A stretch of 59,114 nt of DNA, counting the filler. It is 5 parts of 5 records of this genome, joined end to end, with 100 filler letters (N's around TTAATTAATTAA, not from the genome) between each part and the next. Parts side by side here need not be neighbours in the genome. Positions count along the whole stretch, not along the records: positions 47,377 to 59,114 come from DRR723986_9894; 4 more parts are not named here. One strand, 5' to 3'. Every line of letters starts with the position of its first letter. Position 1 is the stretch's first letter. The notes beneath the pieces were generated by a model, which was given only the letters and a program-made list of their open reading frames with translations, did not search any database and was not told the origin of the DNA. Positions 42,863-59,114 of the stretch are shown one piece after another. A program made the translations under genes and the position numbers.

Positions 42863-42926
42863 CTGAGTCAGAACTCGCGGTTAGCGAAATATTAGAGAAA
42901 CGCAATTACGTCCTATAGAGATAGAC

Positions 42927-43265
42927 ATGTCTGAAATCGTCGAAAAATACAACGCAGCGGAAAAACTGAAGGATGAAGGGAAGTACGACGAAGCGGTTGT
43001 GCTACTGAATGAAATCCTGGCCGTTGAACCTGAACATACGCTGACGCACCTAACACTTGGTCGCATCTACACACTTCAGCAGAAGTTTGAATTGGCCGTC
43101 GAGCACAGCCAGAAAGCTTGTGAGCTGGAGCCCAACGAGCCCTTCAACTTTACGGCTCTGAGCGTTACGCTGCAGCGAGTCTACGCCGGAACAGGCGATC
43201 AGTCGTACATTCAGAAAGCTGAAGACGCGATGGCTGAGTCGCGGCGTCTGGAATCGCTGAAGTAG
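42927..43265 (+). CDS. Small TPR protein
   Basis: TPR-like helices GKYDEAV...EPEH and LAVEHSQKACELEPNE. Confidence 0.8.
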   Translation: MSEIVEKYNAAEKLKDEGKYDEAVVLLNEILAVEPEHTLTHLTLGRIYTLQQKFELAVEHSQKACELEPNEPFNFTALSVTLQRVYAGTGDQSYIQKAEDAMAESRRLESLK

Positions 43266-43289
43266 TTCGTCGCCGAAGGGCAAGATTCA

Positions 43290-44624
43290 ATGGAAGTTAT
43301 TCACCACGGTGCTTTGCACGGTGTTACTGGGTCTTGCCATCGGCTAATTGTCGCCCCAGGTCGCAGCATTCTGGTTGACTGCGGCCTGTTCCAAGGGAAA
43401 GATGCCAAGGGGCGTGACGAGTCGAATCCGATCGATTTTGACATCGACGACGTCAAGGCTCTCGTTGTCACCCACGTGCACCTGGATCACGTCGGCCGCA
43501 TTCCATTCCTGCTTGCTGCAGGTTTTAACGGGCCGATCTACTGCAGCCCTCCGACGGCAAAACTGCTGCCGCTGATGCTGGAGGATGCTCTGCGAGTCGG
43601 TGTCACGCGGAACAAGCGGCTGATCGAGCGATTCCTGCTCGACCTTCGCAAGCACATTCGACCGCTTTCGTTTGCAAAGTGGCATCAACTCGACGGTGGG
43701 CTCGAAATCCGGCTTACACCTGCAGGCCACGTCCTTGGTTCGGCCATTGTTGAATTCGACTCCCAAGGCGAGAGAGTTGTCTTCAGTGGTGACCTGGGCA
43801 GTCGCCACCAACCGCTGCTGAAGGATCCGGTCAGCCCCGAACGAGCCGACTTGCTGATTCTTGAGAGCACATACGGCGATCGAAACCACGTCGGCCGCGA
43901 TGAACGGATCAGCCAGTTGCACCGCGTCCTGTGCCGCACGCTCGATGACAAGGGCGTGACGATTATACCCGCCTTTAGTGTTGGGCGAACCCAAGAGCTG
44001 CTCTATGAGATGAACCACATCTTCGAACTCATGCAGGCTGAGCAACGTTGCTCAATGCTGAATCGTGTCGATGTGATCATCGATTCCCCGCTCGCACAGC
44101 GGTTCACCGAAGTGTACAAATCGCTGCAAGCCTACTGGGACGACGAAGCTCAGAAGGTTCTCAAGTACGATGACCAACCATTGGTTTTCGAGAACATGGT
44201 CAACATTGAGAACCACGGCGAACATCGCGATACGGTCGAGTATCTCAAGGAAAGCGAGATTCCTGCCATCGTGATTGCCGCCAGCGGAATGTGCACGGGC
44301 GGACGAGTGGTGAACTATTTGAAAGAATTCATCGGCGATGAACGGACGGACATTGTGTTCGTTGGCTATCAAGCCGAAGGTACGCAGGGACGCTACATTC
44401 AGGAAGGAGACTGGGTGAAGTTCGATGGCAAGCGTTATGATATTCGAGCCAAAAGTCACCAGCTCTCGGGTTACTCAGCCCATGCCGATCAGTCAGACCT
44501 ACTCCGGTTTGCCGGAGGGTTTGCTGAAAAACCCAAGGCAATACGCCTGGTGCACGGCGAAACTCATGCAAAACGTGCGCTCCGCGAGAAGCTAACGCAG
44601 GCCGGCCACAGTGTTATCGACTAG
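43290..44624 (+). CDS. MBL-fold beta-CASP metallo-hydrolase (probable nuclease)
   Basis: VTGSCH, DCGLFQG, THVHLDHVG, AGHVLGS, ESTYG, SGMCTGGR, SAHAD and VHGE motifs. Confidence 0.93.
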   Translation: MEVIHHGALHGVTGSCHRLIVAPGRSILVDCGLFQGKDAKGRDESNPIDFDIDDVKALVVTHVHLDHVGRIPFLLAAGFNGPIYCSPPTAKLLPLMLEDALRVGVTRNKRLIERFLLDLRKHIRPLSFAKWHQLDGGLEIRLTPAGHVLGSAIVEFDSQGERVVFSGDLGSRHQPLLKDPVSPERADLLILESTYGDRNHVGRDERISQLHRVLCRTLDDKGVTIIPAFSVGRTQELLYEMNHIFELMQAEQRCSMLNRVDVIIDSPLAQRFTEVYKSLQAYWDDEAQKVLKYDDQPLVFENMVNIENHGEHRDTVEYLKESEIPAIVIAASGMCTGGRVVNYLKEFIGDERTDIVFVGYQAEGTQGRYIQEGDWVKFDGKRYDIRAKSHQLSGYSAHADQSDLLRFAGGFAEKPKAIRLVHGETHAKRALREKLTQAGHSVID

Positions 44625-44663
44625 CTGGGTTATTGACTAGCTAGCTGGGTTATCGACTAGCTG
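44613..44663. repeat. Triple tandem repeat spanning the stop codon
   Basis: GTTATCGACTAGCTGG / GTTATTGACTAGCTAGCTGG / GTTATCGACTAGCTG. Confidence 0.85.
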
Positions 44664-44709
44664 CATCACCCGGTCGGGTGCCTCGCTGGTTAGGAAACAC
44701 ACCAGCGGT

Positions 44710-47276
44710 CTATTGCTCGTCCTCGGAATTCTCCGGTGTTCTGTATAGAAAAGCATCACTGGTCAGAAGCGACATAATCAGGGCTTTCATGCTGCCGCCG
44801 TTGTCCCGATAGGCCCGATGAGCGGCTCGTAGAACGGGAGCATCGTGGAGCGTCTCGTTGCGGCCCATCCAAAAACGAAACGCGTGTCGCACAAAAACCT
44901 GCTCGACGCGCTCACTCTCGGCGAGCTTTTGAATCATATCGATCGCATTTTCCACTTCGCCGTCCAGCTTACTATCGCCCGACGCAATAATTTCTCCGGA
45001 AGTGTCGACTGGCCGGTTCAATTCTGTCGTTCGATAAATTCCCGCGTGGTTGTACATCTCAAAGGGCAACCCAAGCGGATCCATCTTCTGGTGACAGGTC
45101 CAACAATAGCTTTCGCGCGTGACCCGCATTCGCTCTCGCAGCGATTTGTGCGGTTCGTCAGGCAGCATCGCATCGACGGTAATGGGAACATCTGGAATCC
45201 CACCACCCAGCAATCGTTCACGGACCCAGCGTCCTCTGAGAATGGCGTGGTTGTCCATCGCATCAGAGTGAGACACCAACCAGCTTGGATGAGTGAGAAT
45301 GCCTAGTCGTTCGCCCTGCGGGACCGTAGCTAGTTCTCGCTCCGGTTTCATCGAACCGTTTCCAAAACTGCGGCGACTCACGCGTGCGAACAGTTTTGGA
45401 CCTTTCAGATCGGCCTCTTCTACATACTGGTTGCCGACATTGAGACTACGCTTGGCGGCAGCCTGCTTGCGCTCAAGGTTCGTGACCGCGCGTTTTGCAA
45501 GTGTAACCCGTCGCTCAAGAGGCTTCGAACTCGGCTCGGCCTCCAATTGCTTCTCAAGCTCCGCGAGTTCTTTCGACGCAGTTTCCAGTTCTTTCTCAGC
45601 ACGCTCAAATGCCCCTCGGGCGACAAGCTTGGCATCAGCTACAGCCGCCTTTGCCTCGGCCGGAGTACGGCGTCGACCGAAATAAACATTGTCTGACTTG
45701 GCGGCGACGACGCGATCGGTGGTTAGCAACTCTTTCAGTACATCGCGGTCTTCTTGCAAGATCAACTCGACCAAGCGGTCGGTGCTGGCGGTGGCACCAA
45801 ACATCGCACGATAATGGCCCTGGCCGCGATTGTTGGCACCAGTGTCGCCAAGAGCCCGAGTGTCTTTACAGATGTAGCCGGCAAGATCGTAATCAAAATA
45901 GTCGCGAAAGAACTGCAGCACTCTTGGTTTGCGAATTGAGTCGTCGTCGAGCATTCGCTCCACCTCGCGTCGAACATCCTCGCGGGTTCGCATTCGCCCT
46001 TCGATGATGGCTAAGCGCAGGGCCTCATCAGGCTGGAGGTAACGCAACGCGTGATTGACTGCTAGACCGAGCTGCCAGTCTTGCAGCATGACGCGACCAT
46101 GTGCATCGGCCACTCCGGTTGGCAACTCTGGCCGAAAGAGTGCATCGCGATCAAGAAAAATCGTCGACAGCCCCAGCACCGCCCCGTCTTCCTTGCCAAT
46201 TTCATCAATCGATTGCTTCAAAATGTCTAGATAGGCCTGAGATTCGTCCACCGTGGGCGGGCGAAATGTCAACGCTTCGAAAAGGAAGTCTACGGCAGCA
46301 CGCAGCTTCTGCTCAGTGGCTTCGGCGTCGGTGGCTTCGGCTTCGCCGTCCTTCATCAGCTCGTACACGGGCGTCAGCGGTCGCTTCACTTCAGTGCTAT
46401 AGACAAGCGCTGTGGGCAAACCGCGGAGGTCGCCATCAAACTTGTAAGAGTTCGGGTCATCGGTAATCTGCTCTGGATTCGCGATGCTCAGCGGCCCATA
46501 AGCCATATAGCGAATAATGTCCTTAGCAATCCCAAGGATCTGAGTGGCTTCGGCGCTGTTGACGGTATAGAACCCGGGGTAATTCTCCAAGCCATGTTTC
46601 CGCGCCGTTGACAGCACTGCCGGCACGCTCTTGACTGACGTTGCGTAAGCGACGGTGCCGCCTTGCCACTTGATGATTCGATCGGTGCCGAAATACAGCT
46701 TCAGCTCACCGCCGTGGTTCGTTGGTACCGCGTCGCCACGAGTGCGGCCCCCCGGCTTGGCCGGATCGAAAGCTGGTTCTGAGTTGATTAGCTCGTTCAG
46801 CCGCGTAATGTGCTCCGAAGGCGTAAGACGCCACAGCCTGGCAGGAGAAGAGGTTGGAACGAGCTTGATTTCTTCTGGCAACTGCCCGAAAAGCAAATCG
46901 TGACTGACGAAGTTACCTTTGTTTGGATCCAGATGTTCACGAAAGCCTCCCGTGTGAGCCATCGTGGCGTCGAGTGTGCTGATGATCCAATCGATGAACC
47001 TGAGTCGCTCGACGGCTTCAACTTCGCTGGCATCCCGAGGTGGCATTTCTTCCAATGCGACTTGCGCCCAGACAGATTTCCAAACGGCGGCGTTGACCGT
47101 GTCGATAGGTCCTAGGTCGGCTAGTGACAAGCCAGCTTCGGGATCTGACGCGCCATGGCAGTCCACGCAGTGCTGGGCAAGGAAGGGCTGAGCAAGATCG
47201 GAAAACGCTTGTTCGGCTGGCTGCCCCGGTGTGTAAGTGTTGTCGCCCTGACCGCTTGGGGCCTGACCGCTTGGGG
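44710..47276 (-). CDS. Planctomycete-type cytochrome c protein (DUF1592/1588/1585-like), 5' truncated
   Basis: Frame open to the contig end; HCVDCHG heme motif, [30 protein letters not shown] and [12 protein letters not shown]. Confidence 0.85.
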
Positions 47277-47376
47277 NNNNNNNNNNNNNNNNNNNNNNNN
47301 NNNNNNNNNNNNNNNNNNNNTTAATTAATTAANNNNNNNNNNNNNNNNNNNNNNNNNNNNNNNNNNNNNNNNNNNN
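47277..47376. other. Artificial contig spacer
   Basis: Same 100-nt linker. Confidence 0.99.
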
Positions 47377-47471
47377 CGTATTGGATAAGGACATGTCCTG
47401 AGCAAAAACGCCTCCGGACAGGACTGTGCAGAAGAGAAGACAAGCAGTAGCGACGTATTTTGACATCTTTT

Positions 47472-48002
47472 TCAGGCTTTCTTTGTGTTACGCTGATTGG
47501 CCGATACAGCTTTTTGGTAGAGCTTGTTGTTTTCAATAGCCTGCAGCACTGCGCCAATTAAAAAATCAATACTTGAAGGAGCTCTGACGCTGGCATCCGC
47601 AATCGCCATTCTCTGGATGGAGAGATCATTGTAAGTGAATTGATCCGATGTGATCACAACAGGGATCGTTGGGTTGTGCAATCGAAATTCCAGAAGCCAA
47701 TCAATAGCATTGTCGAGGCATTTAAAGATATCAACATCGACGAGAAGCACAATGCTTTTATTGGTGAAAAAAAGCATAGAGGGCGCTTCCGAGCAGTCAT
47801 TGAACACAACCCGCCCCCAATCGGGAAGCATAAAATTAGCCTTGTGCCATATGTAAGAACCGGTCCTAGACATAATATAAAGAGTTGTGTTGTGCTTTAT
47901 CGCCGCCTTCGCGGCGTCATCATTGAATTGAATGCGCGTCAAAGGGTTATCAAGCTTTACCTGAGCGCCAGCCAAATTAATTGATACTTTTGAAGCCGCC
48001 AT
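47472..48002 (-). CDS. Hypothetical protein, possible degenerate receiver domain
   Basis: LLVDVD...FRLHNPTIPVVITS...ADASVRAP resembles a CheY-like fold; start uncertain. Confidence 0.5.
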   Translation of the reverse strand: MAASKVSINLAGAQVKLDNPLTRIQFNDDAAKAAIKHNTTLYIMSRTGSYIWHKANFMLPDWGRVVFNDCSEAPSMLFFTNKSIVLLVDVDIFKCLDNAIDWLLEFRLHNPTIPVVITSDQFTYNDLSIQRMAIADASVRAPSSIDFLIGAVLQAIENNKLYQKAVSANQRNTKKA

Positions 48003-48201
48003 GTAGCTACGCAAGCCCCCGGGTCCCAGACATCATTTATTTATTGTAAATTAGCACGCCATGACACAGGATGGGTCAAGCATACGTTTCCCGGCTCTGT
48101 CTTTAGATAGACCTATTTCTAAGGGTGAGCTCTTATTTCTTTGATTGGCTGTGGGTACTCTACGTTGGTGGATTGATTTCACACTCGTAAGATAGACAGG
48201 G

Positions 48202-49068
48202 TCATTGACGAACAATCCCGCCGTTCACGGCCCCGATTACAGTCGTAACAACGTCATGAACAACCGCGGAGCGCGCATGGACGGTGGTCATAACCCTGCC
48301 AACTATGGAGGATGAATTGGATGCTATGTTCAGTGCGAGAAATGCGGTGTCTTCAGTGCCACCGATCGCGTCGGTTACCCCAGTAATTGCGTAGGTTGAT
48401 GTTGACTCTGCCTCGGAAACTGCTCCGTTGACGCCATTTGCGATTTGGGAAAGGGCGTAGTTCATTTCTGGAACTGAAAGGTCCGGATTGAAATCGATGT
48501 TGATACTGCTGACGATTTCTCCTGCGTTCACGGCACCGAGTGCAGTTGTTTGAATGGTCCCAACGTCGAATATTTGGTCAAAATCAAACTCGATGGCTGC
48601 AATTTCGGTTAGTTCAGGGAATATGACGCCGCTAATTTGTGTCGTGATGCTTGCATCAATATATGACGTCATCAAAACCTGTGCCGCTTCCAGGCTCTGA
48701 CCACTAAAATCGCTTTCGTAAAGTGAAAGTTGCGCTGCTGGTTCCAGTTGGAACAACATGGATCCCACTGGGTAGAATCCGGGCGGCAAGCCTCGAACAT
48801 GATCAAGCGCGTCTTCTGCTGTCACTGTCAGACCGGTTTCCCCGACTGTCGCATAGTCCGGTTGACCTGTTGCGTCATAGCCAACAATGACACGGTCGCC
48901 AGCCGTCAAGTATCGAGGCATCAGGATCATGCCGGAAGGGCTGTTGTCGGCCAGATTGATCATCATCGAGTTCACGTTTAGCGATTCAATTTCTTCCAGC
49001 AGAGGAAGCAAACGATCAAAGAACGTCTCTGCTTTCGCCATCGTTGACGTGGAGAGCACCAAAAACAT
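48202..49068 (-). CDS. Secreted TTALGAVN-motif protein, paralog C (start uncertain; frame open to 49374)
   Basis: Hydrophobic segment ending AKA; TTALGAVNAG and TTVIGAVNGG; C-terminal half aligns by eye with 49473-50330. Confidence 0.7.
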   Translation of the reverse strand: MFLVLSTSTMAKAETFFDRLLPLLEEIESLNVNSMMINLADNSPSGMILMPRYLTAGDRVIVGYDATGQPDYATVGETGLTVTAEDALDHVRGLPPGFYPVGSMLFQLEPAAQLSLYESDFSGQSLEAAQVLMTSYIDASITTQISGVIFPELTEIAAIEFDFDQIFDVGTIQTTALGAVNAGEIVSSINIDFNPDLSVPEMNYALSQIANGVNGAVSEAESTSTYAITGVTDAIGGTEDTAFLALNIASNSSSIVGRVMTTVHARSAVVHDVVTTVIGAVNGGIVRQ

Positions 49069-49106
49069 AAGATATAAAATGGTGACACTGACTTTTCCGA
49101 GCTGTC

Positions 49107-49332
49107 GACCCGCCGGCCTCTGAAAGAAACCAGCGGGCCTCCAAAGGGCTCTCACCGGGGAGCAAGAGCGCCCACGGCTACCGTCGCATGGCAAAAAGAC
49201 AGCAGCCGGTTCTTCTATTCGAAGGTCCGGCGACGCGCCGTGTGCGCCCAAGCGCGCGCCGAACCTTTCCTGGGCCTTGCCTGGGGGGCAAAACAGACCC
49301 AGCCCCGCGCTATCGGGCAGTTGATTGCGCGG
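49107..49332 (-). ncRNA. Candidate structured RNA / leader (six consecutive hairpins)
   Basis: Six adjacent stems whose mismatches are largely G-U pairs on the minus strand; GC-rich island in AT-rich surroundings. Confidence 0.55.
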
Positions 49333-49472
49333 ATTCAGAGATTTCCGTTTTCTTGGTTTGCAAATAGTCGGCATTTATTGAAAAATTTTGATTCACCTTA
49401 GTCTAGCTGTTGTCGTTGTTGTTTTCGGTGTGGTGGCGAAAATATCCGCCACCACTGTTCCGATAGGAACTA

Positions 49473-50330
49473 TCAGGGCAGGGTCTGCTGACCGGACGAC
49501 GAACCGGTGATGCCGGTGATCACACCGTCGATGCCCGATGTGATCGTACCGGTGTTAACCGCACCGAGCGCGGTGGTCGACAGGTTGCCGATCGTACCGT
49601 TCACTTCGTTCATCGTATTGGTGATCGAGCCGTTTACGCCGGTCATGTTCGACGCAACGTTGATCACGATTGCACCGGTGTCAGCCGAACCACCGATCTG
49701 GTTCATCACGGACGAAAGTGCGTTGGTGGTGCTGGTCGATGCCTCGTCGATGGCGGAGTTCACGCCGAGCGTGATGTCGCCGGTGTTGACAGCACCAAGT
49801 GCCGTCGTCGCCATGTCACCGAAGTTCAGCGTCGGCATGTTCCACTCGGTTGCCGATACGCCAGCAGATGCGACGGCTTCCTGAGTTGCCTGATCGATTC
49901 CGTCGACGATGTTGGTGATCGAGCCGTTGATGTCGCCACCTTGCGTTTGGAACGAGGTGTAGTCATTCGCAACATCAGATGTTGCAGCGTCTACTGCCAA
50001 ATCCATACTTGCGTAGTCTGAGCCACCGTAGGAGTAGACGGTGGTGGTTACGGGGGGGTCCCCAGCCGTGGTCGAAGATGCAGTAATCGAATCCAATGCA
50101 GAGTTAACCGCAGCATCATACTGGGCTTGCGAGATGATATCGCCGTTCGCATCCATGTATGCAGTGGTCGTACCACCACCGATGTTTTCAGCAATGTTTG
50201 CAAACGTGCCGTTCACGGATGCCAGGTTGGTGTCGTTGCTGATTTGGGTCAGTACACGCTCCAGAACGGATTGTGCGGAAGCTGTAGATGCCATTGCAAC
50301 TAGTGCGATGGCGGTAGTGGCAAGAACTGT
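49473..50330 (-). CDS. Secreted TTALGAVN-motif protein, paralog B (native start codon apparently lost at the element junction)
   Basis: TVLATTAIALVAMASTASAQ signal h/c region; TTALGAVNTG twice and NGSITN twice; upstream GTG at 50351 has no SD. Confidence 0.75.
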   Translation of the reverse strand, partial: TVLATTAIALVAMASTASAQSVLERVLTQISNDTNLASVNGTFANIAENIGGGTTTAYMDANGDIISQAQYDAAVNSALDSITASSTTAGDPPVTTTVYSYGGSDYASMDLAVDAATSDVANDYTSFQTQGGDINGSITNIVDGIDQATQEAVASAGVSATEWNMPTLNFGDMATTALGAVNTGDITLGVNSAIDEASTSTTNALSSVMNQIGGSADTGAIVINVASNMTGVNGSITNTMNEVNGTIGNLSTTALGAVNTGTITSGIDGVITGITGSSSGQQTLP

Positions 50331-50426
50331 TTGCCAGAAAAAATAAAGCACTGAAGCCGAATCAGAACTTTATTTTTTGTGTACAATGGGTATATTGATT
50401 TTGCAGGTGACAATCAACAGGATTCT

Positions 50427-51359
50427 ATGCACGATCAAACACCGAACTTCACGATAGATCACGATCAGTCTCAAACTATCATAACTTTGGCCGTGTTCTT
50501 TGATAGCTACTACCTTCCAGACGCCTCGATCCGCAAAAAGACTTGCAAACAGGATCAATATATATTCAACAAACACATTCGCTCACAGTTGGGGCATCTG
50601 ACGTTTACTGAACTTACGCCATTGATGCTTGACACTTGGGTGCGTAAACATCTCGATCAGGGCTACGCCCCTGTCACAGTCAACAAACATATTTTTCTAA
50701 TGAACCGCTTGCTGAACATGGCACGGCATTGGGGGTTTATTGCGCATAACTTTTTCGAAAACCGCCTGATCCGTAAGCTTCCCATTGGCAACTTCCGTCA
50801 AGTTTTTTTGACTGAAGACCAGATCAAGTCTTTACTTGAAGCATGCAAGGCGGATTCACACATGCACATTTATCACGTCGCCAAGTTGCTTCTTCTGACC
50901 GGGGCACGTGGTGGCGAACTTCGCAGTGCTTTATGGGAGCATGTCAACTGGCAAGGTTACATCTGGGAAGTACCTGTTGCAAAGGGTGGACGTCCCCGTC
51001 GAATATTCTTGGGCGATGCTGCTATACAGGTCTTTAAGGATATTCAGGACTTGAACCAAAGCAATGGATTGCCGACTCGTCCAAAAGACCCAGTGTTCAT
51101 GAACCCGTGGCGAAAGATCGCCTATGGGCATTTTCACAGTTGTTGGGTTCGCTGTCGTAATCGCGCCGGACTAACGGATGTTCGAATGCACGATCTTCGT
51201 CATACCTATGCAAGCATCCTGATCAACAAAGGCGTCAGTCTATACGAAGTACAACGCCTTTTAGGTCATCATCACATAACTATGACAGAACGGTATGCAC
51301 ACTTACAACCAAACACTCTGAAGTCGAAAGTTGATTTGGTTTCGGATTTCATCGCGTGA
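50427..51359 (+). CDS. Phage-type tyrosine integrase
   Basis: SAM-like N-terminal region; TGARGGE, K, HDLRH, LGH and ERYAH catalytic residues; SD AGGA before ATG 50427. Confidence 0.93.
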   Translation: MHDQTPNFTIDHDQSQTIITLAVFFDSYYLPDASIRKKTCKQDQYIFNKHIRSQLGHLTFTELTPLMLDTWVRKHLDQGYAPVTVNKHIFLMNRLLNMARHWGFIAHNFFENRLIRKLPIGNFRQVFLTEDQIKSLLEACKADSHMHIYHVAKLLLLTGARGGELRSALWEHVNWQGYIWEVPVAKGGRPRRIFLGDAAIQVFKDIQDLNQSNGLPTRPKDPVFMNPWRKIAYGHFHSCWVRCRNRAGLTDVRMHDLRHTYASILINKGVSLYEVQRLLGHHHITMTERYAHLQPNTLKSKVDLVSDFIA

Positions 51360-51549
51360 ATGTTCGGGACCAGATCAAGGGATGTCTGCCAATGGTTAGA
51401 AAACATTGATTATCTAACCAAATCACCTTACATCATTGTTTTATATATATATTTCCCCACACCCCCTTCGAGCCCCCTGCCCATTTGGTTAGATTATCCC
51501 CGATATCAAACTTTCTTAACCCTTCCCATCCCCCAAGCAAGGAGTTGCC

Positions 51550-52122
51550 ATGGCATTAGGCAAACAAGCCAAGACACTGACAGACCCCCAGATCAAGGCG
51601 GTGTTGTCACACCTGTCCGGCACCCGTGATCCAATCCGCAATCAGGTCATGTTCCTGTTGTCTGTGGATGCCGGATTGCGGGCCAAGGAAATCGCTTCGA
51701 TCACGTGGTCGATGGTCACCACATCGGATGGATCGATTGGGGATGTGATCCGCTTGCAGGATGTCGCCGCCAAGGGCAAGTCCGGTGGTGTGATCTTCAT
51801 CAGCAAGCGTTTGCGACAGCACTTGGACATTTATAGCCAATCGCAAAGATTGACGGGGGCGATCATCACATCGCGATCTAGCAAGCCCATGTCGGCACAG
51901 GTGGTCACGAACTGGTTCTGGACCCTGTATCGCGATCTGGGCATGGACGGCTGCTCCAGCCACTCAGGACGCCGTACAGCGATCACACGGTGGGCACGGG
52001 GCATCACGGCTGCTGGTGGCTCCCTGCGCGATGTGCAGGCCTTGGCACGGCATTCTTCCTTGCAGATGACCCAACGCTATATTGACGTATCCGAAGATGC
52101 GATGAAGAAGGTCGTGGGGTGA
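51550..52122 (+). CDS. Small catalytic-domain-only tyrosine recombinase
   Basis: 190 aa; GLRAKE, AKGK, HSGRR, ARH and QRY; SD AGGAG. Confidence 0.92.
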   Translation: MALGKQAKTLTDPQIKAVLSHLSGTRDPIRNQVMFLLSVDAGLRAKEIASITWSMVTTSDGSIGDVIRLQDVAAKGKSGGVIFISKRLRQHLDIYSQSQRLTGAIITSRSSKPMSAQVVTNWFWTLYRDLGMDGCSSHSGRRTAITRWARGITAAGGSLRDVQALARHSSLQMTQRYIDVSEDAMKKVVG

Positions 52123-52267
52123 CACCGGTCAAAAGCGGTCATCCGTGACTCAAAGCCGATAAAGCTGATAGCTTCCTTGGGTGAGAATCAGACGTCAGCC
52201 GATATATGTGCCGCCCATGAATGTGCTGTGGCGGCACGTAACGGTCTCAAATCAAGGAAGGTTCAGG

Positions 52268-52804
52268 ATGATCAAAAAACTTGCTGCAGCAGCTATCGCT
52301 AGCTGTCTTGGCTTCGGACCGATGGTGGTGCAAGCCCAAAACTTGACGCTCCATGACACCCTCGTCGCAGCGCAGGTTGTCAGCCACCACGATAGGCACA
52401 CCGTTCGCATGATCCAGCGCAACCTTGCCCATTATGCGTACTACTCAGGTCCTATCGATGGCATTTGGGGGCCTCAGACCGAAATGGCCGTAGATTTGGC
52501 CCATCGCGCGGCCTATCCGCATCTTTATCAAGTCGTAGATCACGAAGATGGGTCTGGGAACGTTACGTTGGTTCCCATTCAAGCCGCTGTGACAGTCGTG
52601 CAGTCCGACAGGTATGTAACCTTGCCGCATATCAATCGAAGCGTACCAGCCTATTACCATATTGAAGGGCAAGGAACTGTTTGGCTGGATATCGCCTATG
52701 ACACCCGCCCAACTGCTCAACGCTATGACACTTTGATGGTTGACCGTGTTGATGGATATCGTGTGATAGCGCCAACTGTGCGCGTGCCTGTTGTTCGTCA
52801 CTGA
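52268..52804 (+). CDS. Secreted peptidoglycan-binding domain protein
   Basis: Signal peptide MIKKLAAAAIA...AQ; IQRNLAHYAYYSGPIDGIWGPQT is a PG_binding_1-like motif. Confidence 0.75.
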   Translation: MIKKLAAAAIASCLGFGPMVVQAQNLTLHDTLVAAQVVSHHDRHTVRMIQRNLAHYAYYSGPIDGIWGPQTEMAVDLAHRAAYPHLYQVVDHEDGSGNVTLVPIQAAVTVVQSDRYVTLPHINRSVPAYYHIEGQGTVWLDIAYDTRPTAQRYDTLMVDRVDGYRVIAPTVRVPVVRH

Positions 52805-52808
52805 ACCA

Positions 52809-52851
52809 AAAAGCCCCGGGACAACACTCAAATCGTTGTTCCGGGGATTTT
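52809..52851. terminator. Bidirectional terminator-like hairpin
   Basis: AAAAGCCCCGGGACAAC...GTTGTTCCGGGGATTTT between convergent genes. Confidence 0.7.
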
Positions 52852-52871
52852 GAAGCACTCTTTGGTCCTGA

Positions 52872-53180
52872 TCAGATTTTCAGGTCTTCCAGCGACACAC
52901 CTTCTTCCAGATAAGCGATCACCCAGTTTGGACGACGACCACGGCCTGTCCATGTCCGATCTGGATTGCGTGGATCAGCGTATTGGGGAAGGCTGTCTGA
53001 TCGACTCTTGGCAGTTGTTCCCCCAAAGATTTCGTCAAGACTGAACCCGTATTCAGCGGCGACTGCTTTTGCAGCGGCTTGGGCTTCCAACTTGCGACGT
53101 TTTTCCAGTGTCACAAGGGCCTTATCGATGTCCTTGCTCAGTTGCTTCAGTTCAGCAAGGGATAGGTCATTCAAGTCCAT
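52872..53180 (-). CDS. H-NS family nucleoid protein
   Basis: LSLAEL coiled N-terminus; YADPRNPDRTWTGRGRRPNW DNA-binding motif. Confidence 0.93.
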   Translation of the reverse strand: MDLNDLSLAELKQLSKDIDKALVTLEKRRKLEAQAAAKAVAAEYGFSLDEIFGGTTAKSRSDSLPQYADPRNPDRTWTGRGRRPNWVIAYLEEGVSLEDLKI

Positions 53181-53246
53181 ATGGATCACCAGTCAGATTG
53201 TCAGATGCCGGACCGTATCTTGCCGAACATGGGAATGCAAACGCGA

Positions 53247-53459
53247 TCATTGCCACGGTTTTTGATCCTGTATCGCCAGACGAACCGCGTTCATGTAATC
53301 CCGTTCCGCTTCGGATAGGATCGACCAAAACTTTGTGATCGACTCGACAAGGCTGATCAGATCATCAAAATCCTGACCATGGCCCAAGTGTTTTTGGGAC
53401 TGCATGGACGTATGCAAAGTATCAAACCGGGATTGTAGTTTCTCTCGCAACTTGGTCAT
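53247..53459 (-). CDS. Hypothetical protein (70 aa)
   Basis: MTKLREKLQ... with SD AAGGA; co-oriented small-gene cluster. Confidence 0.6.
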   Translation of the reverse strand: MTKLREKLQSRFDTLHTSMQSQKHLGHGQDFDDLISLVESITKFWSILSEAERDYMNAVRLAIQDQKPWQ

Positions 53460-53484
53460 GCGATTCCTTTTGTTAGTAGATGAT

Positions 53485-53808
53485 TTATTGATCACGGAAC
53501 ACCCACCGGGTTTGACCACAGATTTGCATGGTGTAACCCGACAAGGACCGAACGAACCGATCATAGATGGACATCAGACGGTTATCGTGGGTGTTGTATT
53601 GAAAATACGGCAATCGGTTCTGGTAGATGTAGGATTTGATCACCCGTTCTATGTATCGGACAACTTTGACGGGGTTCTTGATAGTGCCGACTTGGTCTGT
53701 GGAATGGATCAGTCGATACCAATCCCAATCATCCCAAGTTTCGGTCCAGACAAGGAACTCGTTGCCGGTCTGATCTATACCAACGCCGTACCGGTGGCCT
53801 TCGAACAC
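53485..53808 (-). CDS. Hypothetical protein
   Basis: 107-aa ORF in the co-oriented cluster. Confidence 0.55.
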   Translation of the reverse strand: MFEGHRYGVGIDQTGNEFLVWTETWDDWDWYRLIHSTDQVGTIKNPVKVVRYIERVIKSYIYQNRLPYFQYNTHDNRLMSIYDRFVRSLSGYTMQICGQTRWVFRDQ

Positions 53809-53825
53809 GAATGTTTCAATGGTCT

Positions 53826-54008
53826 TTACTGCGGGGAGTCTCCTTCTTTTGGGTTGCGGGGTTCATAGTAGGTGCAGGAAGCAACTTCACTGATTTGTGG
53901 TGGTCGCTTTGCACCGGATCGATTGATGGGGTGGTTACACATGATGCCTTGGCCAACACCAACTGACCAGATCAGGTAACGGCATCCTTTACAGTCAAGA
54001 ATCTGCAT
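53826..54008 (-). CDS. Small Cys-rich hypothetical protein
   Basis: CKGC...C...C; overlaps upstream ORF, with GGAAGA upstream. Confidence 0.5.
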   Translation of the reverse strand: MQILDCKGCRYLIWSVGVGQGIMCNHPINRSGAKRPPQISEVASCTYYEPRNPKEGDSPQ

Positions 54009-54177
54009 CTGAGTCGTCTTCCTGATTTGGGGTGTCCAGCTTCAACTTGCCCGAATGTATCAGACCCAACATGAACTGCATGGATTCACGGGTGGGTCCG
54101 TCATATCCAGTTGTTTCACCCTTTGCTGACCCTGCTATAGGCTCCTTCGAGGCTTGGTTGTTCTCGTCATTGTTCAA
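53995..54177 (-). CDS. Hypothetical protein (60 aa)
   Basis: TTG start; coupled to the next ORF. Confidence 0.4.
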   Translation of the reverse strand: MNNDENNQASKEPIAGSAKGETTGYDGPTRESMQFMLGLIHSGKLKLDTPNQEDDSDADS

Positions 54178-54519
54178 AGTTTCGTAACTTCCCTATCTGT
54201 TGGATTCGTTCAGGTGGTCAGTTGTCGATAGAGTTGAGCAGCAAAGTTTATTCCGACGCCATTCGGAAATAGCTCGACAATGCGGACCGAATGTGCTATA
54301 CATAGACTATTCGAATTTATTTGAAGTCTTCTTGCCCCGACATTCGAGGTGGCTTCAAGTCGACTGCCCATCGTTAGTAGCAGGCATCTGGGTCTTGGAC
54401 CCGATCTGCGCAAAAATGGGCGGTATCCTTATAAATATATATAAGTCTGTGCCCACACCCCCTTCATTTTGGGGATCCATCAAGCTGGAAGGGAACTAAG
54501 AAACTAGAAAGGATCATTT

Positions 54520-57417
54520 ATGAAAGTGTCGTATTTCAAAGAACTGTATAAATCAAAAGGTAACGTCAAGAAGATAGTTGACGTTGTTGATGAAATCAAG
54601 TCTGGGACCCATAAGAAACTTATTGAATCCATCGAACTTCATCTGGAAGATGGGTCCCTGTCGGATTCTGAACGTTCAAGTTTGATTCAGAAGAAGAAGG
54701 CTAAACTACCCATCTTCAACCCATGCTTACTGACAACTAACAAATCATCTTCATCAAAAGGTGGTGTTGCTACAGGATTAGTTCAAGTTGACATTGATGC
54801 ATCTGACAATCCAGATGTCGATATGTTACAAGTCAAGAATATCCTATCGAACCTACCCTATACAGTTTATGTGTTTCAATCACCGAAGGGTGGCTTGAAG
54901 TGGGCTGGCAAGACCGACTTTGAATCTGAAGATGACGAAGCGTTCGCAAAGCTGTTGACTAGATTCCGCACAGCTTACGATAGAACATTACTTGAACTGA
55001 AGAAGCATGTCGATGTTTGTTTCGACGATTGTGCACGAAGCATATCCAGACTGTGCTTTTTGAGTCACGATCCAGATATCTATTTCAATTCCAATCCTGA
55101 AACATTGGTCTTGGGTCCGATAGCAGTTCCCGTGGACGTAAAGCAGATCACATCACATGTCATCCAAGACAGCGTAGCACCAGACTTCATCGACACATTG
55201 CTATCCTTCGTTCCAGCAGCATCGAAGCACCCAGAACGGTTCAAGGTAGGCTGCGTTCTGTTCTGCCAACTGGGCAGTGAAGGTCAGTATAAGTATGTCG
55301 ATAAGTTCGAAAAGAACCATGCAAAGCTACTGCATGAATGGTCGAATATTGAAAAACATCAAAAGCACGGACACATCGGCACGCTTGTAAACATTGCTAA
55401 GGAAAATGGCTACAAACCTAGGCAAAGTAATGGACGCAGGTTCGAACGGGCGAAGCCAAGTCAGCATCGCTTTGATCCACCAGTATCAGTTCAAGAAGCA
55501 CGCAAGCATCTGAACGACATCTTGACGGACTGTATCCGCAACAAAAAATCGCATTACATTTCCATGTCTTGTGGGTTGGGCAAGACAGATACGATGTTGG
55601 ATGCGATCTTGGATCACGGTTCCGACATGAAAATCATGATTTGCACGCCGACCGGGCAACTGCAGGATCAGATTCATCAGAACCTGATCAAGAAGATCGA
55701 AGATAAGTTTGATTTCTTCACAGCCCAGCAGATAATCACGGGTATCAAAGCGACAAAGGGTCGGCTGACATCTGATGAACACGGACCAATGTGCATCCAA
55801 GCGGATGTCGTGACTAAGCTTCAGAATATTGAAGCGGGGTTGCCCGTCACTGAATGTTACAAATGCCCAGTGTTCGACACTTGCCGATACCTTCGGCAGT
55901 TCCAAGACTTCGACACCATACGGATTGTTACCACAAGTCAGTATTTCAACGGTCCCGGTATCTGGGATGGTGGATCAAAGGATGGCAAAAAGGGCAAGCT
56001 ACCACTAGACAAGCCGTTCCAGCCCGATCTGATCATCATTGACGAAAATGCGATCCAAGAACAAGTCATTACAGCAGGCTTGGATACACCCTTCGAGTCG
56101 CTGCAGGTCGTCATATCGCATTGCGGGACCGGGAAAGGCTTAGCAAAGGCGGTCCAGAAATGTGCAAATCAAATCCTGACTGATCATGCCGTTGCCAAGT
56201 CTGCAAAGAAGACGCTTTCGAAGCAGATACTGAACGGATCGAAGTCTGTCGCCAATGACTACGACGCCAAGCACTTTGTGATCTTGGAAGCCTTCGCCAA
56301 GTATATCATGACAGGCTATGATGACAGTATGTTGGATGGCATCCGGTTTCGCAAGGCGAAGTATCACAACAAGCCCGGCATTACCCCACTTCTTGAAAAG
56401 TTGTCGATGAAGCAAGTCGCCGACGAATATCAAGATGTTCCTGTTATTATACTGGATGCCACGGCTGAAGAAGCTGTTGTGAAGGCCGTCTTTCCGAAGA
56501 TTCCTTTCACCAAGATGATCGTTAAACAAAACGATGATGTGAAGATTCACCAGTTGGAAGGCACGTCAGTGACCAAGCGATGGTTGAAAGGAAAGGGCAA
56601 CGTTAACAAAATAGTTGACAGGATCAACGGAATCCTAACGAAGAAAACGGCACCGAACAAAAAGGTTGGGTTGATTACTTTCAAATCTATAGATGGGGAT
56701 CAGCAGTTTCATCAGACGTTGGGTCAGCGTATCGGTGCAACTAAGATATCGTATTTCGGAAACCTACGCGGCAGCAACGACTTCGAAGATGTTGATTTCT
56801 TGTTCATAGTGGGACGCCATGCAGCAAACGGGATTGTTCATGAACGCTTTGCAAAGGCCGTGTTCGATCATGACTGGGCAGGTGATAAAGAATACGTCGA
56901 TCAGTTGGTCGCTATGCAGGATGGACGCAGTTTTGCCCTGAACGCATCATGTTACACAAATGATGTTGACCAAGTCATCTATCGGCATTGTTCTGTAAAC
57001 GAAACCATCCAAGCTGTTGGTCGATCAAGACCCATCCACGGTGGTCCGAAGCAGGTTTATTTATTTTCAAACGAAAGCCTTGGTGAAGATGTTCGGATCA
57101 CAAGCTTCTTTGGCCTGACCGACTCCCAGTATGCAGATCAGTTCGCAGCCATCCATGAACGGGGTTTCATAGACTGGAAATCAAAGCAGCATCGCGACGC
57201 TTGCGGCATTACAGATCACACACGAAAGCACCGGCAGGATGTGTTCTTCGAAGATGCCATGGCGAACGATCTTGAAGTCGTCGTTGTCGATGGCGTGGAC
57301 ACAAGTCGTCACGTTATCAGCAAAACTTTCATAACGGCGAACACAGAACTGTTGGTGGAATCGTTGGAAGCTGCGAACACGACTGTGCAGGAAGTTCGAA
57401 GTTATTCAACTGGGTGA
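54520..57417 (+). CDS. BT4734/VirE_N-like primase + PriCT-like + SF2 helicase fusion
   Basis: KAKLP, GLVQVDID, FQSPKGGLK and SRLCFLSHDP (BT4734-like); IGTLVNIAKENG (PriCT-like); GLGKT, IIIDE, LDAT, RGSNDF and QAVGRSR (SF2); SD AAGGA. Confidence 0.8.
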   Translation: MKVSYFKELYKSKGNVKKIVDVVDEIKSGTHKKLIESIELHLEDGSLSDSERSSLIQKKKAKLPIFNPCLLTTNKSSSSKGGVATGLVQVDIDASDNPDVDMLQVKNILSNLPYTVYVFQSPKGGLKWAGKTDFESEDDEAFAKLLTRFRTAYDRTLLELKKHVDVCFDDCARSISRLCFLSHDPDIYFNSNPETLVLGPIAVPVDVKQITSHVIQDSVAPDFIDTLLSFVPAASKHPERFKVGCVLFCQLGSEGQYKYVDKFEKNHAKLLHEWSNIEKHQKHGHIGTLVNIAKENGYKPRQSNGRRFERAKPSQHRFDPPVSVQEARKHLNDILTDCIRNKKSHYISMSCGLGKTDTMLDAILDHGSDMKIMICTPTGQLQDQIHQNLIKKIEDKFDFFTAQQIITGIKATKGRLTSDEHGPMCIQADVVTKLQNIEAGLPVTECYKCPVFDTCRYLRQFQDFDTIRIVTTSQYFNGPGIWDGGSKDGKKGKLPLDKPFQPDLIIIDENAIQEQVITAGLDTPFESLQVVISHCGTGKGLAKAVQKCANQILTDHAVAKSAKKTLSKQILNGSKSVANDYDAKHFVILEAFAKYIMTGYDDSMLDGIRFRKAKYHNKPGITPLLEKLSMKQVADEYQDVPVIILDATAEEAVVKAVFPKIPFTKMIVKQNDDVKIHQLEGTSVTKRWLKGKGNVNKIVDRINGILTKKTAPNKKVGLITFKSIDGDQQFHQTLGQRIGATKISYFGNLRGSNDFEDVDFLFIVGRHAANGIVHERFAKAVFDHDWAGDKEYVDQLVAMQDGRSFALNASCYTNDVDQVIYRHCSVNETIQAVGRSRPIHGGPKQVYLFSNESLGEDVRITSFFGLTDSQYADQFAAIHERGFIDWKSKQHRDACGITDHTRKHRQDVFFEDAMANDLEVVVVDGVDTSRHVISKTFITANTELLVESLEAANTTVQEVRSYSTG

Positions 57418-57757
57418 AGGCGATAAGGATACATGGTGGGGTTGCTTCTGTGGTCAATAAATGTTTCCCCATCGTTACATTGTTGAGATGGTGCTGGCGT
57501 TCGATGTGTATTTCGCAAGTCCTTTCTTCAGTAAAAAATCTCGTCATGATAACTATCTTGATGGCGATGTCACCAAAATCGACTAGTGTCTATTAGGTAT
57601 AGTAAGGGAATGTCGATTCTGGTGTCTTGAAAACTATGGGGACAGGCATCATGCATCAAAGGTGACGAGATTTCCTTCGACCGGGCGAAGTATACCAGAT
57701 TTACATCGGATTTCAAGTTTGTTGGCATCCAGTTTGCCAGAAATCGTCGAAGACGCC

Positions 57758-58126
57758 TTATATACCCGTTATCCCGTTCACGATGTCAGATACACCAGAA
57801 GTGATATCACCCGTGTTCACGCCGCCGATAGCAGTTGCCGTGATCTGAGCAATGCTGCCACCAATGTTGACAATCCTGTTGTCCACCCGACCACGAACAA
57901 CGGCTTCGGTGGCGGATATGTTCAAGACCAGAACAGCACTGTCAAAGCTGCCGCCAAGTTGGGCAAGCTGCATGGAAGACGCATCCGATGACGCTGTGCG
58001 TGCTTGGTCCAACGCCATGTTGGAACCAGTTGAAACGCCCGCCGTCACGTCTTCCAGCCTGTCCAAAACGATGCGACCGGTGTTTACCCCACCGATGGAC
58101 AGGGCGTCTTCCCCGACCACGTCCAC
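57758..58126 (-). pseudogene. C-terminal fragment of TTALGAVN-motif protein, paralog A
   Basis: SIGGVNTG...LGGSFDSAVLVLNIS...TAIGGVNTGDITSGV; in-frame stop at 58160-58162; no signal peptide or N-terminal half. Confidence 0.75.
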
Positions 58127-58810
58127 AACATTGATCGAGAACTGCGGGTCATTGACCTTTCAAATATCTTCATTCGCAACATATACCATGTGAATGACGA
58201 CGGGCATGTCAGTTACGGGCGGATGCACGGTGGGTTCTGGCAGGGCATCAAATCTGATCACCGCCACGGTATTAGAATCAATGGTCAGCCGGTAGTGATT
58301 CTGGATTACAAGGCAATGATCTTGAACATCGTTGCCGCACAACATGGCATACAGTTGGTTGGCGATCCGTATGATGTGGATTTTGGTTTTGCCGATTATG
58401 CAAAGAAGCTACAGCGACAGATGGTGAAGTCCGCTGTGATTATTGCGATCAACAGTCAAACGGAAGTGAAGGGCTACTTTGCAGCAAGGGAGCAACTGAA
58501 CGACGACTTCTGGGATGTGGTGGGCCTTGGATTTCCAAAGTCCGTCTTCGATGACATCATCGCGGCGTTATTGAAGCGTCATCCGTTCCTGCAAAATGTA
58601 TTCTTCAAGAGCATCGGAAAAGATATCTTCATGGAAGATGCCGCCATCGCGCGGGATATCATGGAGCGGTTCTTGGATGTGGGAAGGGTGGTCCTGCCGA
58701 TTCATGATGGATTTGTGGCCCAAATGGATGACAAGGATTTCCTGAGGAAGGCTATGGAAGACGCGTGGTATGATCGCTTCGGGACAACTATTGGCATCGA
58801 TGAGGAGTGA
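58110..58810 (+). pseudogene. 5'-truncated family-A-polymerase-like gene (left limit approximate)
   Basis: IDLSNIFIRNIY...GRMHGGFWQ, motif A VILDYKAM, DPY, motif B RQMVK, motif C LPIHDGF; no credible start upstream. Confidence 0.6.
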
Positions 58811-59114
58811 TCCCGTCTTCTGGCACCCTGATGGATTGCGCAAAATCGACCAGTCCCTATTACAGTATGTATAAGGCCTTGGTCGCTTTTGCGAGAATTT
58901 TATCCCTTCGCATCCAACGAACCAGAAGACGGGATTTCAGGAAGGGATGTTCAACACCAAGGTTGCGGCGAAGCCGCTTCATTTCCGAAGGAAATGAACG
59001 TCAACGGTTGAGGTTGCGACGCGGCGGCCACCGGCGCGTCGTGGGCGCTGTAAGGGCGCGTGTGGCCCCAACATGGTTTCGTCAGGGAGTGTCCTGAACT
59101 CTGTGTATCTGGCC

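Follow-up and report, generated by a model that had tools for sequence, protein, structure and literature searches.

What kind of mobile element carries an unusual primase-helicase gene with a DNA polymerase gene lying directly beside it, and do the two genes serve one replication module? The question is raised by a locus near the end of a 59,114-nucleotide (nt) stretch of DNA (hereafter the window, meaning the whole stretch analysed: five records of one genome joined by 100 filler letters, positions 47,377 to 59,114 coming from DRR723986_9894). An earlier note on this DNA had described here an integrative element with a full integrase, a second recombinase of 190 amino acids (aa), an H-NS gene, small open reading frames (ORFs), a 965-aa primase-helicase and a PolA-motif ORF. 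It had proposed that an archaeo-eukaryotic primase (AEP), a helicase and a minimal family-A polymerase together formed the replication module. All of these genes lie where the note had placed them (Table 1). Our results suggest that the segment from 50.3 to 57.7 kb is probably an integrated, plasmid-like element of ~7.4 kb, and that the polymerase ORF, which belongs to the TV-Pol family, is a separate, truncated remnant.

The 965-aa protein is the candidate replicase of the element. Its N-terminus matches PF08800 (BT4734-like_N; 46.9 bits, cut-off 22.4), and its C-terminal two thirds open with the motifs of a superfamily 2 (SF2) helicase, for which ResIII lies just above its cut-off (23.7 bits, cut-off 22.5) and DEAD below it (21.5, cut-off 26). 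In all five aligned sequences AEP motifs I (D91xD93), II (G125-L-K127) and III (F168-D169) are invariant. The same holds for helicase residues G352, G354, K355 and T356 (Walker A, GLGKT), D508 and E509 (DENA) and Q831, G834, R835 and R837 (motif VI, QxxGRxR), and for four cysteines, C425, C446, C449 and C455, which lie between helicase motifs I and II. According to the available text of PMC11724360, a lysine in place of histidine in motif II is a mark of BT4734-like primases, and by the motif definition taken from the available parts of that paper and of PMC5862659 the protein belongs to the BT4734-like AEPs. Note that Helicase_C gave no match to the protein even at E up to 5, and that the primase-helicase profile, compared with the PDB, gave a best E value of 0.18 with unrelated chains. 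DinG-type profiles match only ~70-85 of its residues (NCBIfam 23.3 bits, cut-off 794). In DinG and XPD an iron-sulfur cluster sits between motifs I and II.

Relatives of this protein are rare. A word-based search among 5.8 billion proteins gave six clusters, with identities of 97% (P0001, in which the ORF is also intact), 52% (P0002 and P0003), 31% and, in two cases, 22-23%. The 72,556 plasmid records contained one partial, weak match, and three matches in viral contigs covered the N-terminal domain only. Relatives were absent from 50,697 phage records, and none of the eight loci described next has phage structural genes.

Scans of genome, viral and metagenome collections with the primase-helicase gave 34 loci; a substantial relative is present in 8 of them (L001-L007 and L034), whose ORFs we scanned with Pfam. 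A tyrosine integrase of at least 300 aa lies within 10 kb in seven of these eight, and the integrase of the window is 26-30% identical to those of L002, L003, L005 and L007. In five of the eight, a small second recombinase (three tyrosine, two serine enzymes) lies within ~1.5 kb 5' of the primase-helicase, and capsid or conjugation families were found in none. Since the islands of the relatives have an integrase and no transfer genes, they support the existence of an integrative, non-self-transmissible element with a backbone replication gene. Relatives of the 965-aa protein thus lie in the same kind of island in other Proteobacteria, which supports the integrative and probably self-replicating element proposed in the earlier note. 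Both the architecture of the primase-helicase and the island family around it are, as far as these searches indicate, rare, and a limited search of the partly available literature on such primases found no description of a BT4734-type primase fused to an SF2 helicase.

The content of these islands changes wholly from one locus to the next, with cargo that includes Mrr, HNH, FRG, type ISP restriction-modification (R-M), AAA_15+HNH, reverse transcriptase, Tse2-like ADPRT and Macro genes. The primase-helicase keeps its place beside a recombinase and a small ORF, and a fixed place amid changing cargo is the behaviour of a backbone gene. Most of these neighbours are defence genes, and they also fit another explanation, namely that the 965-aa protein defends against phages, as a primase-polymerase of the VirE-N type with a DinG-like helicase, and is carried as cargo by an island that does not replicate. 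In support of this, the protein matches the PADLOC profiles for DRT-associated RTasVirE-PriCT2 (E 5e-20), CRISPR-associated PrimPol (E 1.2e-12) and type IV DinG (E 1.1e-06), and the NCBIfam profile PrimPol_Db, a CRISPR-associated primase-polymerase of type B (E 2.6e-09). Moreover, BT4734-like primases have been reported in defence systems in the available text of PMC11724360. However, none of the profile matches reaches beyond the primase domain or the first helicase motifs, those to NCBIfam fall far under their cut-offs, no partner gene of a known system is conserved beside the 965-aa gene, and it is the cargo that varies whereas the position of this gene is constant. We consider the defence explanation unlikely, and take the protein as the probable replicase in what follows.

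Does the polymerase ORF belong to the same element? The open ORF (58190-58810, plus strand, 206 aa from a GTG) matches phrog_4756 (E 1.2e-37, profile positions 231-431 of 440). Its closest relative, the 510-aa protein P0007, is 99% identical to the fragment, and the longer relatives measure about 450-520 aa. Homology to P0007 begins upstream of the GTG, at ~58142, which corresponds to residue 289, and before this point the similarity ends. Thus the gene is truncated, as the earlier note had stated; it has lost its first 288 codons, at the 5' end and not through the end of the window.

The family to which this fragment belongs is large: a profile search of 1.84 billion proteins (50%-identity representatives) gave 7343 clusters at E<=0.001, of which 592 reached E<=1e-30. 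In an alignment of 70 sequences six positions do not vary (R315, R329, D343, Y365, K384, N392), and four more, D363, R380, H476 and D477, are kept in at least 90%. The TV-Pol set, as defined by Iyer, Abhiman & Aravind 2008 (PMC2579912), consists of a hairpin arginine, two palm aspartates, a fingers aspartate and RxxxK, with no nuclease; the fragment in the window retains all the residues of the set, and Pfam detected no exonuclease family in the TV-Pol relative. Comparison of the TV-Pol profiles with the PDB at E up to 10 gave nothing usable (best E 1, unrelated), and hhalign against five Pol I sequences gave a weak match (E 0.0044, probability 7.9%) with the TxxGR, A, B and C motifs in register. 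The AlphaFold model of P0007 (pLDDT 85.6) matched 37 PDB chains at E<=0.001 by Foldseek, and all 49 rows listed were family-A DNA polymerases. VIA-align superposed 234-260 residues of the model, mostly within 205-510, at Z 12.8-14.3 and rmsd 3.3-4.5 A; the partners were Bst, Taq, the apicoplast polymerase and the RNA polymerases of T7 and of yeast mitochondria. The modelled P0007 thus has a family-A polymerase fold, and the PolA-motif identity given in the earlier note is borne out. In a protein atlas the homologue P0016 was associated with unnamed clusters only; as a lead, one of its structural neighbours has been automatically named 'family A palm domain-containing'.

The genomic context agrees with this assignment. 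TV-Pol genes have been described beside a resolvase, a lambda-type integrase or a transposase, at hot spots with R-M operons (PMC2579912). Members of the family occurred in 15 of 401 sampled Pseudomonadota genomes. Of six loci scanned (a seventh, L055, was left out), five carry an integrase of the tyrosine type no more than 10 kb away (527-563 aa, with DUF6538 in two), and one has a resolvase next to the gene; five of the six lie near R-M genes, DNA methylases or Vsr. By fold, motif set and context, the fragment and its relatives belong to the TV-Pol family. The copy in the window lacks the thumb and the N-terminal domain, helix 249-265 and everything before it being missing.

Large tyrosine integrases (545-563 aa) with an N-terminal DUF6538 were seen in L006 (8089-9726), L052 (6757-8433) and L054 (2672-4363), so that they recur at the ends of both TV-Pol islands and of one primase-helicase island; a limited literature search found no mention of DUF6538. 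Among phages, 74 large genomes, each with one to three TV-Pol-family genes annotated as hypothetical, come from phages of Vibrio (most of the 74, ICP1, L035, included), Pseudoalteromonas, Shewanella and Klebsiella. Because a phage may have two or three copies, the protein is probably accessory or selfish there and not the replicative polymerase of the phage. The TV-Pol scan of viral contigs found nothing.

If the TV-Pol gene is or was part of the element, then the module comprises AEP primase, helicase and family-A polymerase, and the right end lies beyond the window. We compared four public sequencing runs (X1, X3, X4 and X19) as assembled contigs, and in all four the remnant lies directly to the right of the primase-helicase, even in X4, which has lost the fragment between them. 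In addition, the cargo of the relatives lies 3' of the primase-helicase, so that the element could extend to the right, and the divergence between the window and X4 spans 51174 to at least 59085. Against this, the two genes do not occur together elsewhere: a TV-Pol relative was found in none of the 34 primase-helicase loci and in none of the five whole genomes that carry five of these loci, and none of the six TV-Pol loci has a BT4734 primase. Furthermore, ~340 nt of non-coding DNA lie between the two genes, as does a 127-codon fragment of a paralogue of the flanking genes, on the opposite (minus) strand, and strains differ in where the TV-Pol gene is broken, with two breakpoints seen. Finally, TV-Pols are predicted to be combined primase-polymerases that replace AEP prim-pols (PMC2579912), so that one or the other enzyme is expected and not both.

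The lack of co-occurrence in either direction, together with the truncation and the opposite-strand fragment, indicates that TV-Pol is not in the replication module of the element. Note that the four runs are close relatives that share one locus, so their joint occurrence counts as one event. We therefore regard the three-part module as very unlikely. The genes that the earlier note had grouped part company elsewhere in the case of the polymerase, whereas the pairing of integrase and primase-helicase recurs. The TV-Pol copy is probably the dead remnant of a different class of integrative element.

The junctions of the remnant differ between strains. The repeat-protein fragment and the TV-Pol remnant, both without their 5' parts, join head-to-head at ~58141/58142, and this junction is carried by contigs of X1, X3 and X19, so it is real and not an assembly error. 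X4 is without 57549-58270, having 21 other letters instead, and its polymerase remnant begins at 58271. The X3 sample also contains an uninterrupted TV-Pol copy, in a contig that runs on into an intact gene upstream of 58149. Both gene fragments are enclosed by an imperfect direct repeat of ~31 nt, whose score of 30 exceeds that of all 300 shuffles (maximum 27) and which has only these two matches in the window. A further short repeat occupies the last 30 nt of the window and acts as a branch point in the assemblies: the element contigs of X1, X3 and X4 diverge after 59085, and contigs of X1, X4 and X19 that cover the last 30 nt have other sequence before 59085 (59084 in X19). The final junction of the window, at 59085, is unsupported by the four runs.

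Where does the element itself end? The 12-mer GTTTGCCAGAAA occurs twice only in the window and is the sole direct repeat that fits both junctions, with an implied element of 7403 bp. The left copy falls in codons 4-7 of the minus-strand gene for a 292-aa repeat protein, and the right copy lies 14 nt past the stop codon of the broken repeat-protein gene. The implied insertion site is thus in the first codons of the 292-aa gene; integrases that target dusA are a precedent for integration into the 5' end of a gene, as described in the available text of PMC4482086. An inverted repeat bridges the gap between the start of this flanking gene and that of the integrase, and could be an operator or a recombinase core site. 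We also considered a right end near 57529-57549, where the sequence resembles one arm of the left inverted repeat and coincides with the X4 breakpoint; it was rejected, as the putative overlap sequences differ. The tRNA scan of the window was empty, and so the element is not tRNA-targeted.

In the contigs of the four runs the element is contiguous, with 97.5-100% identity. X4 shows no difference from the window over the left flank and the first 800 nt of the integrase gene, and from 51174 to at least 59085 the two differ by 1.7-6%. Between strains that share the identical left flank the element diverges by 1.4-2.5%. This pattern of identical flank and divergent element suggests a recent recombinational exchange of element variants. 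Moreover, in X4 and X19 the non-coding stretch 5' of the replicase gene is replaced by unlike sequence, 53997-54164 and 54196-54353 being swapped for 181 and 154 other letters. This stretch is a candidate regulatory zone, or possibly the origin.

The following points weigh against our reading of the segment as a mobile, replicating element that is distinct from the TV-Pol gene. The structure model of the 965-aa protein, made with five sequences, is too poor for use (pLDDT 47.4, pTM 0.26), and the helicase class is therefore assigned from motifs and weak profile matches. The score of the GTTTGCCAGAAA repeat was matched by 10 of 300 shuffles, in a comparison that covered the junction zones only and that was picked post hoc; the repeat reported by the earlier note thus exists as an exact 12-mer, but as an attachment site it is only weakly significant. 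Its right copy is also absent in isolate X4, within the missing 57549-58270. If GTTTGCCAGAAA were the crossover, the 292-aa gene would have no start codon in the restored target, and for this reason we treat the ends of the element as candidates only. No empty site, circle junction or element-skipping joint was present in the contigs of the four runs; contigs conceal rare forms, so this result carries no weight either way. Among 19 small ORFs, no excisionase, AlpA or helix-turn-helix regulator was detected at E up to 0.1, and the larger ORFs gave no AlpA or helix-turn-helix family either. To these are added the possible defence role of the 965-aa protein, given the occurrence of its primase class in defence systems (PADLOC; PMC11724360, as far as its text is available), and the constant adjacency of the TV-Pol remnant in the four runs, by which the two genes may be physically linked within this lineage.

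Several of these points would also fit a fixed, decaying patchwork of old insertions in a 20-kb variable region, in which the segment is immobile and the short repeats are due to chance. Two broken genes lie directly beside the segment, the attachment site is a candidate only, with a 12-nt repeat of weak significance and neither empty site nor circle in the contigs of the four runs, and everything from 39.4 kb to the end of the window is missing from the nearest genomes. However, all five recognisable genes of the element are full length, the 965-aa ORF being intact in P0001 too, and the catalytic motifs are intact. Furthermore, the 1.4-2.5% divergence beside an identical left flank suggests recent exchange. 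We consider such a patchwork very unlikely, and we retain the integrated, plasmid-like element as the probable explanation.

The second recombinase consists of a tyrosine-recombinase catalytic domain only. PF00589 spans its residues 9-181 (65.3 bits, cut-off 27.1), and the catalytic R..K..HxxR..H..Y residues are present when the sequence is read by eye. Its relatives are numerous: of 8000 clusters scored, 7965 reach E<=0.001, and the 120 best share 64-98% identity and nearly all measure 189-199 aa; the protein is complete, of normal length for the family, and not a fragment. Close matches come from many metagenome sources, and only a few carry a name (a Nitrosomonadaceae bacterium and an alphaproteobacterium). 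The family was present in 8 of the 401 sampled Pseudomonadota genomes, at nine loci (L069-L077) that lie at the edges of variable regions with R-M, methylase (Dcm)/Vsr, ParB or MobA-type genes. No relative of the 326-aa integrase, of the primase-helicase or of TV-Pol lies near any of the nine, and so the combination of two tyrosine recombinases is not conserved as a unit. On these nine loci we rejected a fixed partnership of the 190-aa protein with this integrase or replicase.

Among the primase-helicase islands it is the position that is kept, with one or another small site-specific recombinase 5' of the replicase. Small tyrosine recombinases of 218-258 aa are found in a Cellvibrionaceae metagenome-assembled genome (two copies) and in a metagenome contig; in Cupriavidus and Paraburkholderia a serine resolvase has the same position, and in Ralstonia the resolvase lies 4.6 kb upstream. 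Since tyrosine and serine enzymes interchange 5' of the replicase, we infer a plasmid-like role in multimer resolution: the 190-aa recombinase most likely resolves multimers of the circle, or else acts as a second integrase. The 14-mer CCCACACCCCCTTC, with a TATATA run before it, occurs in the window only at 51456 and 54452, that is, 5' of both the 190-aa recombinase gene and the primase-helicase gene, which suggests that the two are under common control.

How, then, might the element work? The XerC/D-type integrase at its left end would insert and excise it at the candidate core GTTTGCCAGAAA, in the 5' end of the repeat-protein gene. The excised circle would be copied from an origin that probably lies in the variable non-coding stretch 5' of the 965-aa gene. 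The BT4734-like primase-polymerase domain would lay the primer, the fused SF2 helicase with its four cysteines would unwind the DNA, and a host polymerase would elongate. The 190-aa recombinase, in the position that the serine resolvase has in Betaproteobacteria, would resolve multimers of the circle or act as a second integrase, and the H-NS-like protein would silence the element. As the element has no packaging or transfer genes, its transfer must depend on a helper, which could be a phage or a conjugative element. The TV-Pol element may once have sat at the same variable site, or beside it.

A bolder interpretation would be that islands with an integrase, a small recombinase and a primase fused to a four-cysteine helicase form an undescribed family of helper-dependent replicative elements across Alpha-, Beta- and Gammaproteobacteria. 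Their one fused protein would suffice by itself to initiate replication and would have a new architecture, possibly with an iron-sulfur cluster, a slot for defence genes would lie downstream, and in this strain the element would have inserted into the TV-Pol element and contributed to its destruction. We consider this rather unlikely as a whole. If true, two minimal replicons of unrelated kinds would be in direct competition for the same place on the chromosome. Small integrative elements able to replicate, but not to package or transfer themselves, are increasingly seen as satellites or 'hitchers' that carry defence genes. The presence of a tyrosine recombinase and a serine resolvase at the same position in related islands makes the role in multimer resolution testable. 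For the annotation of such loci, a PolA-motif ORF found next to an integrase will as a rule be a TV-Pol gene, from a very large family predicted in 2008 and barely tested since, and its adjacency to another replicase is no evidence for a joint module.

Table 1. Positions in the window of the element, its candidate ends, the TV-Pol remnant and the flanking genes
Feature	Position	Strand	Basis or remark
Secreted repeat protein, full gene	48202-49374	-	
Secreted repeat protein, full gene, 292 aa	49473-50351	-	
Candidate left attachment core GTTTGCCAGAAA	50329-50340	.	exact 12-mer repeat
Inverted repeat	50335-50381	.	20-nt arms, 85% complementary, 7-nt spacer
Tyrosine integrase, XerC/D-like, 326 aa	50379-51359	+	PF00589 E 1.8e-31; phrog_1 E 1.6e-59
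Upstream motif, copy 1 (TATATA...CCCACACCCCCTTC)	51442-51469	+	81 nt before 190-aa recombinase gene
Stand-alone tyrosine recombinase, 190 aa, catalytic domain only	51550-52122	+	PF00589 E 7.5e-18
PG_binding_1 (peptidoglycan-binding-domain) protein, cargo	52181-52804	+	PF01471 E 3.6e-07
H-NS-like DNA-binding protein, 105 aa	52872-53189	-	PF00816 (C-terminal domain) E 8.3e-15; phrog_10171 E 2.5e-14
Small ORF, no family	53247-53564	-	
Small ORF, no family	53485-53808	-	
Non-coding stretch swapped for unlike sequence in X4 and X19	53997-54353	.	
Upstream motif, copy 2	54438-54465	+	55 nt before primase-helicase gene
Primase-helicase, 965 aa, replicase candidate	54520-57417	+	PF08800 and ResIII
~31-nt imperfect direct repeat, left copy	57574-57595	+	gapped alignment
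Candidate right attachment core GTTTGCCAGAAA	57732-57743	.	exact 12-mer repeat
Repeat-protein C-terminal fragment, ~127 codons, 5' part missing	57758-58141	-	paralogue comparison
5'-truncated TV-Pol gene (residues 289-510 of a 510-aa protein)	58142-58810	+	phrog_4756; P0007
~31-nt imperfect direct repeat, right copy, 31 nt past TV-Pol stop	58841-58862	+	gapped alignment
Short repeat, assembly branch point, last 30 nt of window	59085-59114	.	

The remaining genes of the element are listed in Table 1. The integrase matches PF00589 with 109.6 bits (cut-off 27.1) and the NCBIfam XerD-like profile under its cut-off (E 8.6e-24); its true start may be the ATG at 50427. For the peptidoglycan-binding protein the start is likely the Met at 52268, which is followed by a signal-peptide-like stretch. 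Within its gene, a stretch of 36 nt (52658-52693) has other neighbouring sequence to the left and to the right in contigs from three runs, and is therefore repeated elsewhere in those genomes. The small ORFs within 53247-53808 (105 and 107 aa) overlap, so that at most one of each overlapping stretch is real, and they have no Pfam, PHROG, NCBIfam or PADLOC match. As the earlier note had said, there are no capsid or conjugation genes: Pfam on 15 + 19 ORFs and PHROGs on 12 gave no match to any family of capsid, terminase, relaxase or secretion proteins. Over 47.4-59.1 kb, the ORFs include no capsid, terminase, portal or tail gene as in a prophage, and no relaxase, coupling-protein or type IV secretion system family as in a conjugative or mobilizable element, a lone oriT being undetectable by such scans.

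The genes that flank the element encode secreted proteins, two of them full and one a fragment, which share repeated '(T)ALGAVNTG(D/E)I' motifs and have no Pfam, NCBIfam or PHROG match. The fragment on the right aligns with residues 184-283 of the 292-aa protein at 38% identity (E 2e-19), and comparison with the two left-flank genes identifies it as a third, distant paralogue.

The window comes from the chromosome of a marine bacterium, with housekeeping genes at 1 to 39 kb. The two nearest genomes match it in 36000-39394 only (94% and 85% nt identity), and for 39.5-58.8 kb they gave no match within 20 kb past the syntenic site. Since everything from 39.4 kb onward is missing in them, the element lies within a strain-specific region of at least 20 kb, which agrees with the hot-spot setting described in the TV-Pol paper (PMC2579912). 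The primase-helicase and repeat-protein genes were not found in the four nearest genomes, and the element is absent from the four closest genomes compared; it is accessory. The variable region (39395-59114, at least 20 kb) has its left edge at the end of a DUF2927 gene and includes genes for a DUF58/VWA protein, a nucleoside symporter, a beta-CASP nuclease, a DUF1592/DUF1588 protein and the repeat proteins. An Rfam search of the window gave no family, and a promoter and terminator scan gave counts not above those of shuffled sequence.

Two further observations concern the rest of the window. At 25400-26285 and 31983-32534, short ORFs match the N-terminal parts only of housekeeping enzymes, namely ArgS (183 aa), ribose-phosphate pyrophosphokinase (95 aa) and an FAD oxidoreductase (197 aa); gene breakage, frameshifts or errors of assembly in this core part of the window could each account for them. 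In addition, the low-GC gap to the left of a 180-aa ORF (47247-47276 and about 47321-47332) contains a perfect 15-nt tandem duplication, CCTGACCGCTTGGGG x2, and masked letters are reported nearby.

How does the element compare with known systems? Pipolins are self-replicating integrative elements with piPolB and tyrosine recombinases and no capsid or conjugation genes. The present element resembles them in its tyrosine recombinases and in the absence of capsid and conjugation genes. However, no family-B polymerase was found among the ORFs scanned, and here the predicted AEP primase-helicase would have to rely on a host polymerase. The earlier note had set the element apart from pipolins and from ordinary prophages, and we agree, given the absence from our scans of a family-B polymerase and of phage structural genes. 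Other small phage satellites are the P4-like and PICI elements. Closer in size are the PICMI elements, which according to the available text of Barcia-Cruz et al. 2024 (PMC10803314) contain int, alpA and a primase of the DUF3987/DUF5906 type and lie next to fis. They are likewise small marine integrative elements (6-7 kb) with an integrase, a primase-type replicase and no capsid, and in them, as in the relatives of the primase-helicase, defence genes accumulate 3' of the replicase. In contrast, the ORFs scanned here include no alpA or excisionase, the primase is of the PF08800 and not of the DUF3987/DUF5906 type, and no ORF to the left of the element matches a Fis-type family.

The remnant and its relatives, for their part, are like the published TV-Pols (PMC2579912) in several respects: a length of 400-600 aa, with a minimal family-A core and no exonuclease; in the 510-aa relatives, the hairpin R315, the catalytic D343 and D477, the fingers D363 and R380xxxK384; the fold match to Klenow, Bst, Taq and the T7 and mitochondrial RNA polymerases; and integrase or resolvase neighbours at R-M-rich sites. 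The copy in the window differs in that residues 1-288, with the N-terminal domain and thumb, are missing, and it is most likely dead. The paper also predicts an all-helical N-terminal domain, whereas the first 200 residues of P0007 are mixed alpha/beta in the model. Note that the assignment was made by motif set and fold, with none of the named proteins of the paper in the direct comparison. Bebel et al. reportedly described, in 2020, the primase CcPol-MP with the Cch helicase of SCCmec. The available text of PMC10061031 presents CcPol-MP as the only biochemically studied enzyme of the TV-Pol type, an A-family polymerase that primes de novo with its partner. It shares with the present family the TV-Pol type and an origin in mobile elements; profile comparison with the PDB found no sequence-level link between the two.

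A parallel to the replicase itself is offered by the integrated elements with BT4734-like and other AEP primases. BT4734 is fused to a VirE ATPase and DUF3874, and the AEP primases surveyed are fused to D5, DnaB/RepA, MCM, VirE, DUF927 or DUF3987 helicases, according to the available text of Kazlauskas et al. 2018 (PMC5862659) and of PMC11724360. The element in the window is like these in its AEP motifs with the motif II lysine, its helicase fusion, its integrase neighbour and the absence of virion and transfer genes. It is unlike them in that the partner of the primase is predicted to be an SF2 helicase of the ResIII/DEAD type with four conserved cysteines, and in this way it would add a rare replicase architecture, a BT4734-type primase joined to an SF2 helicase with a conserved cysteine cluster, to those known from integrative elements.

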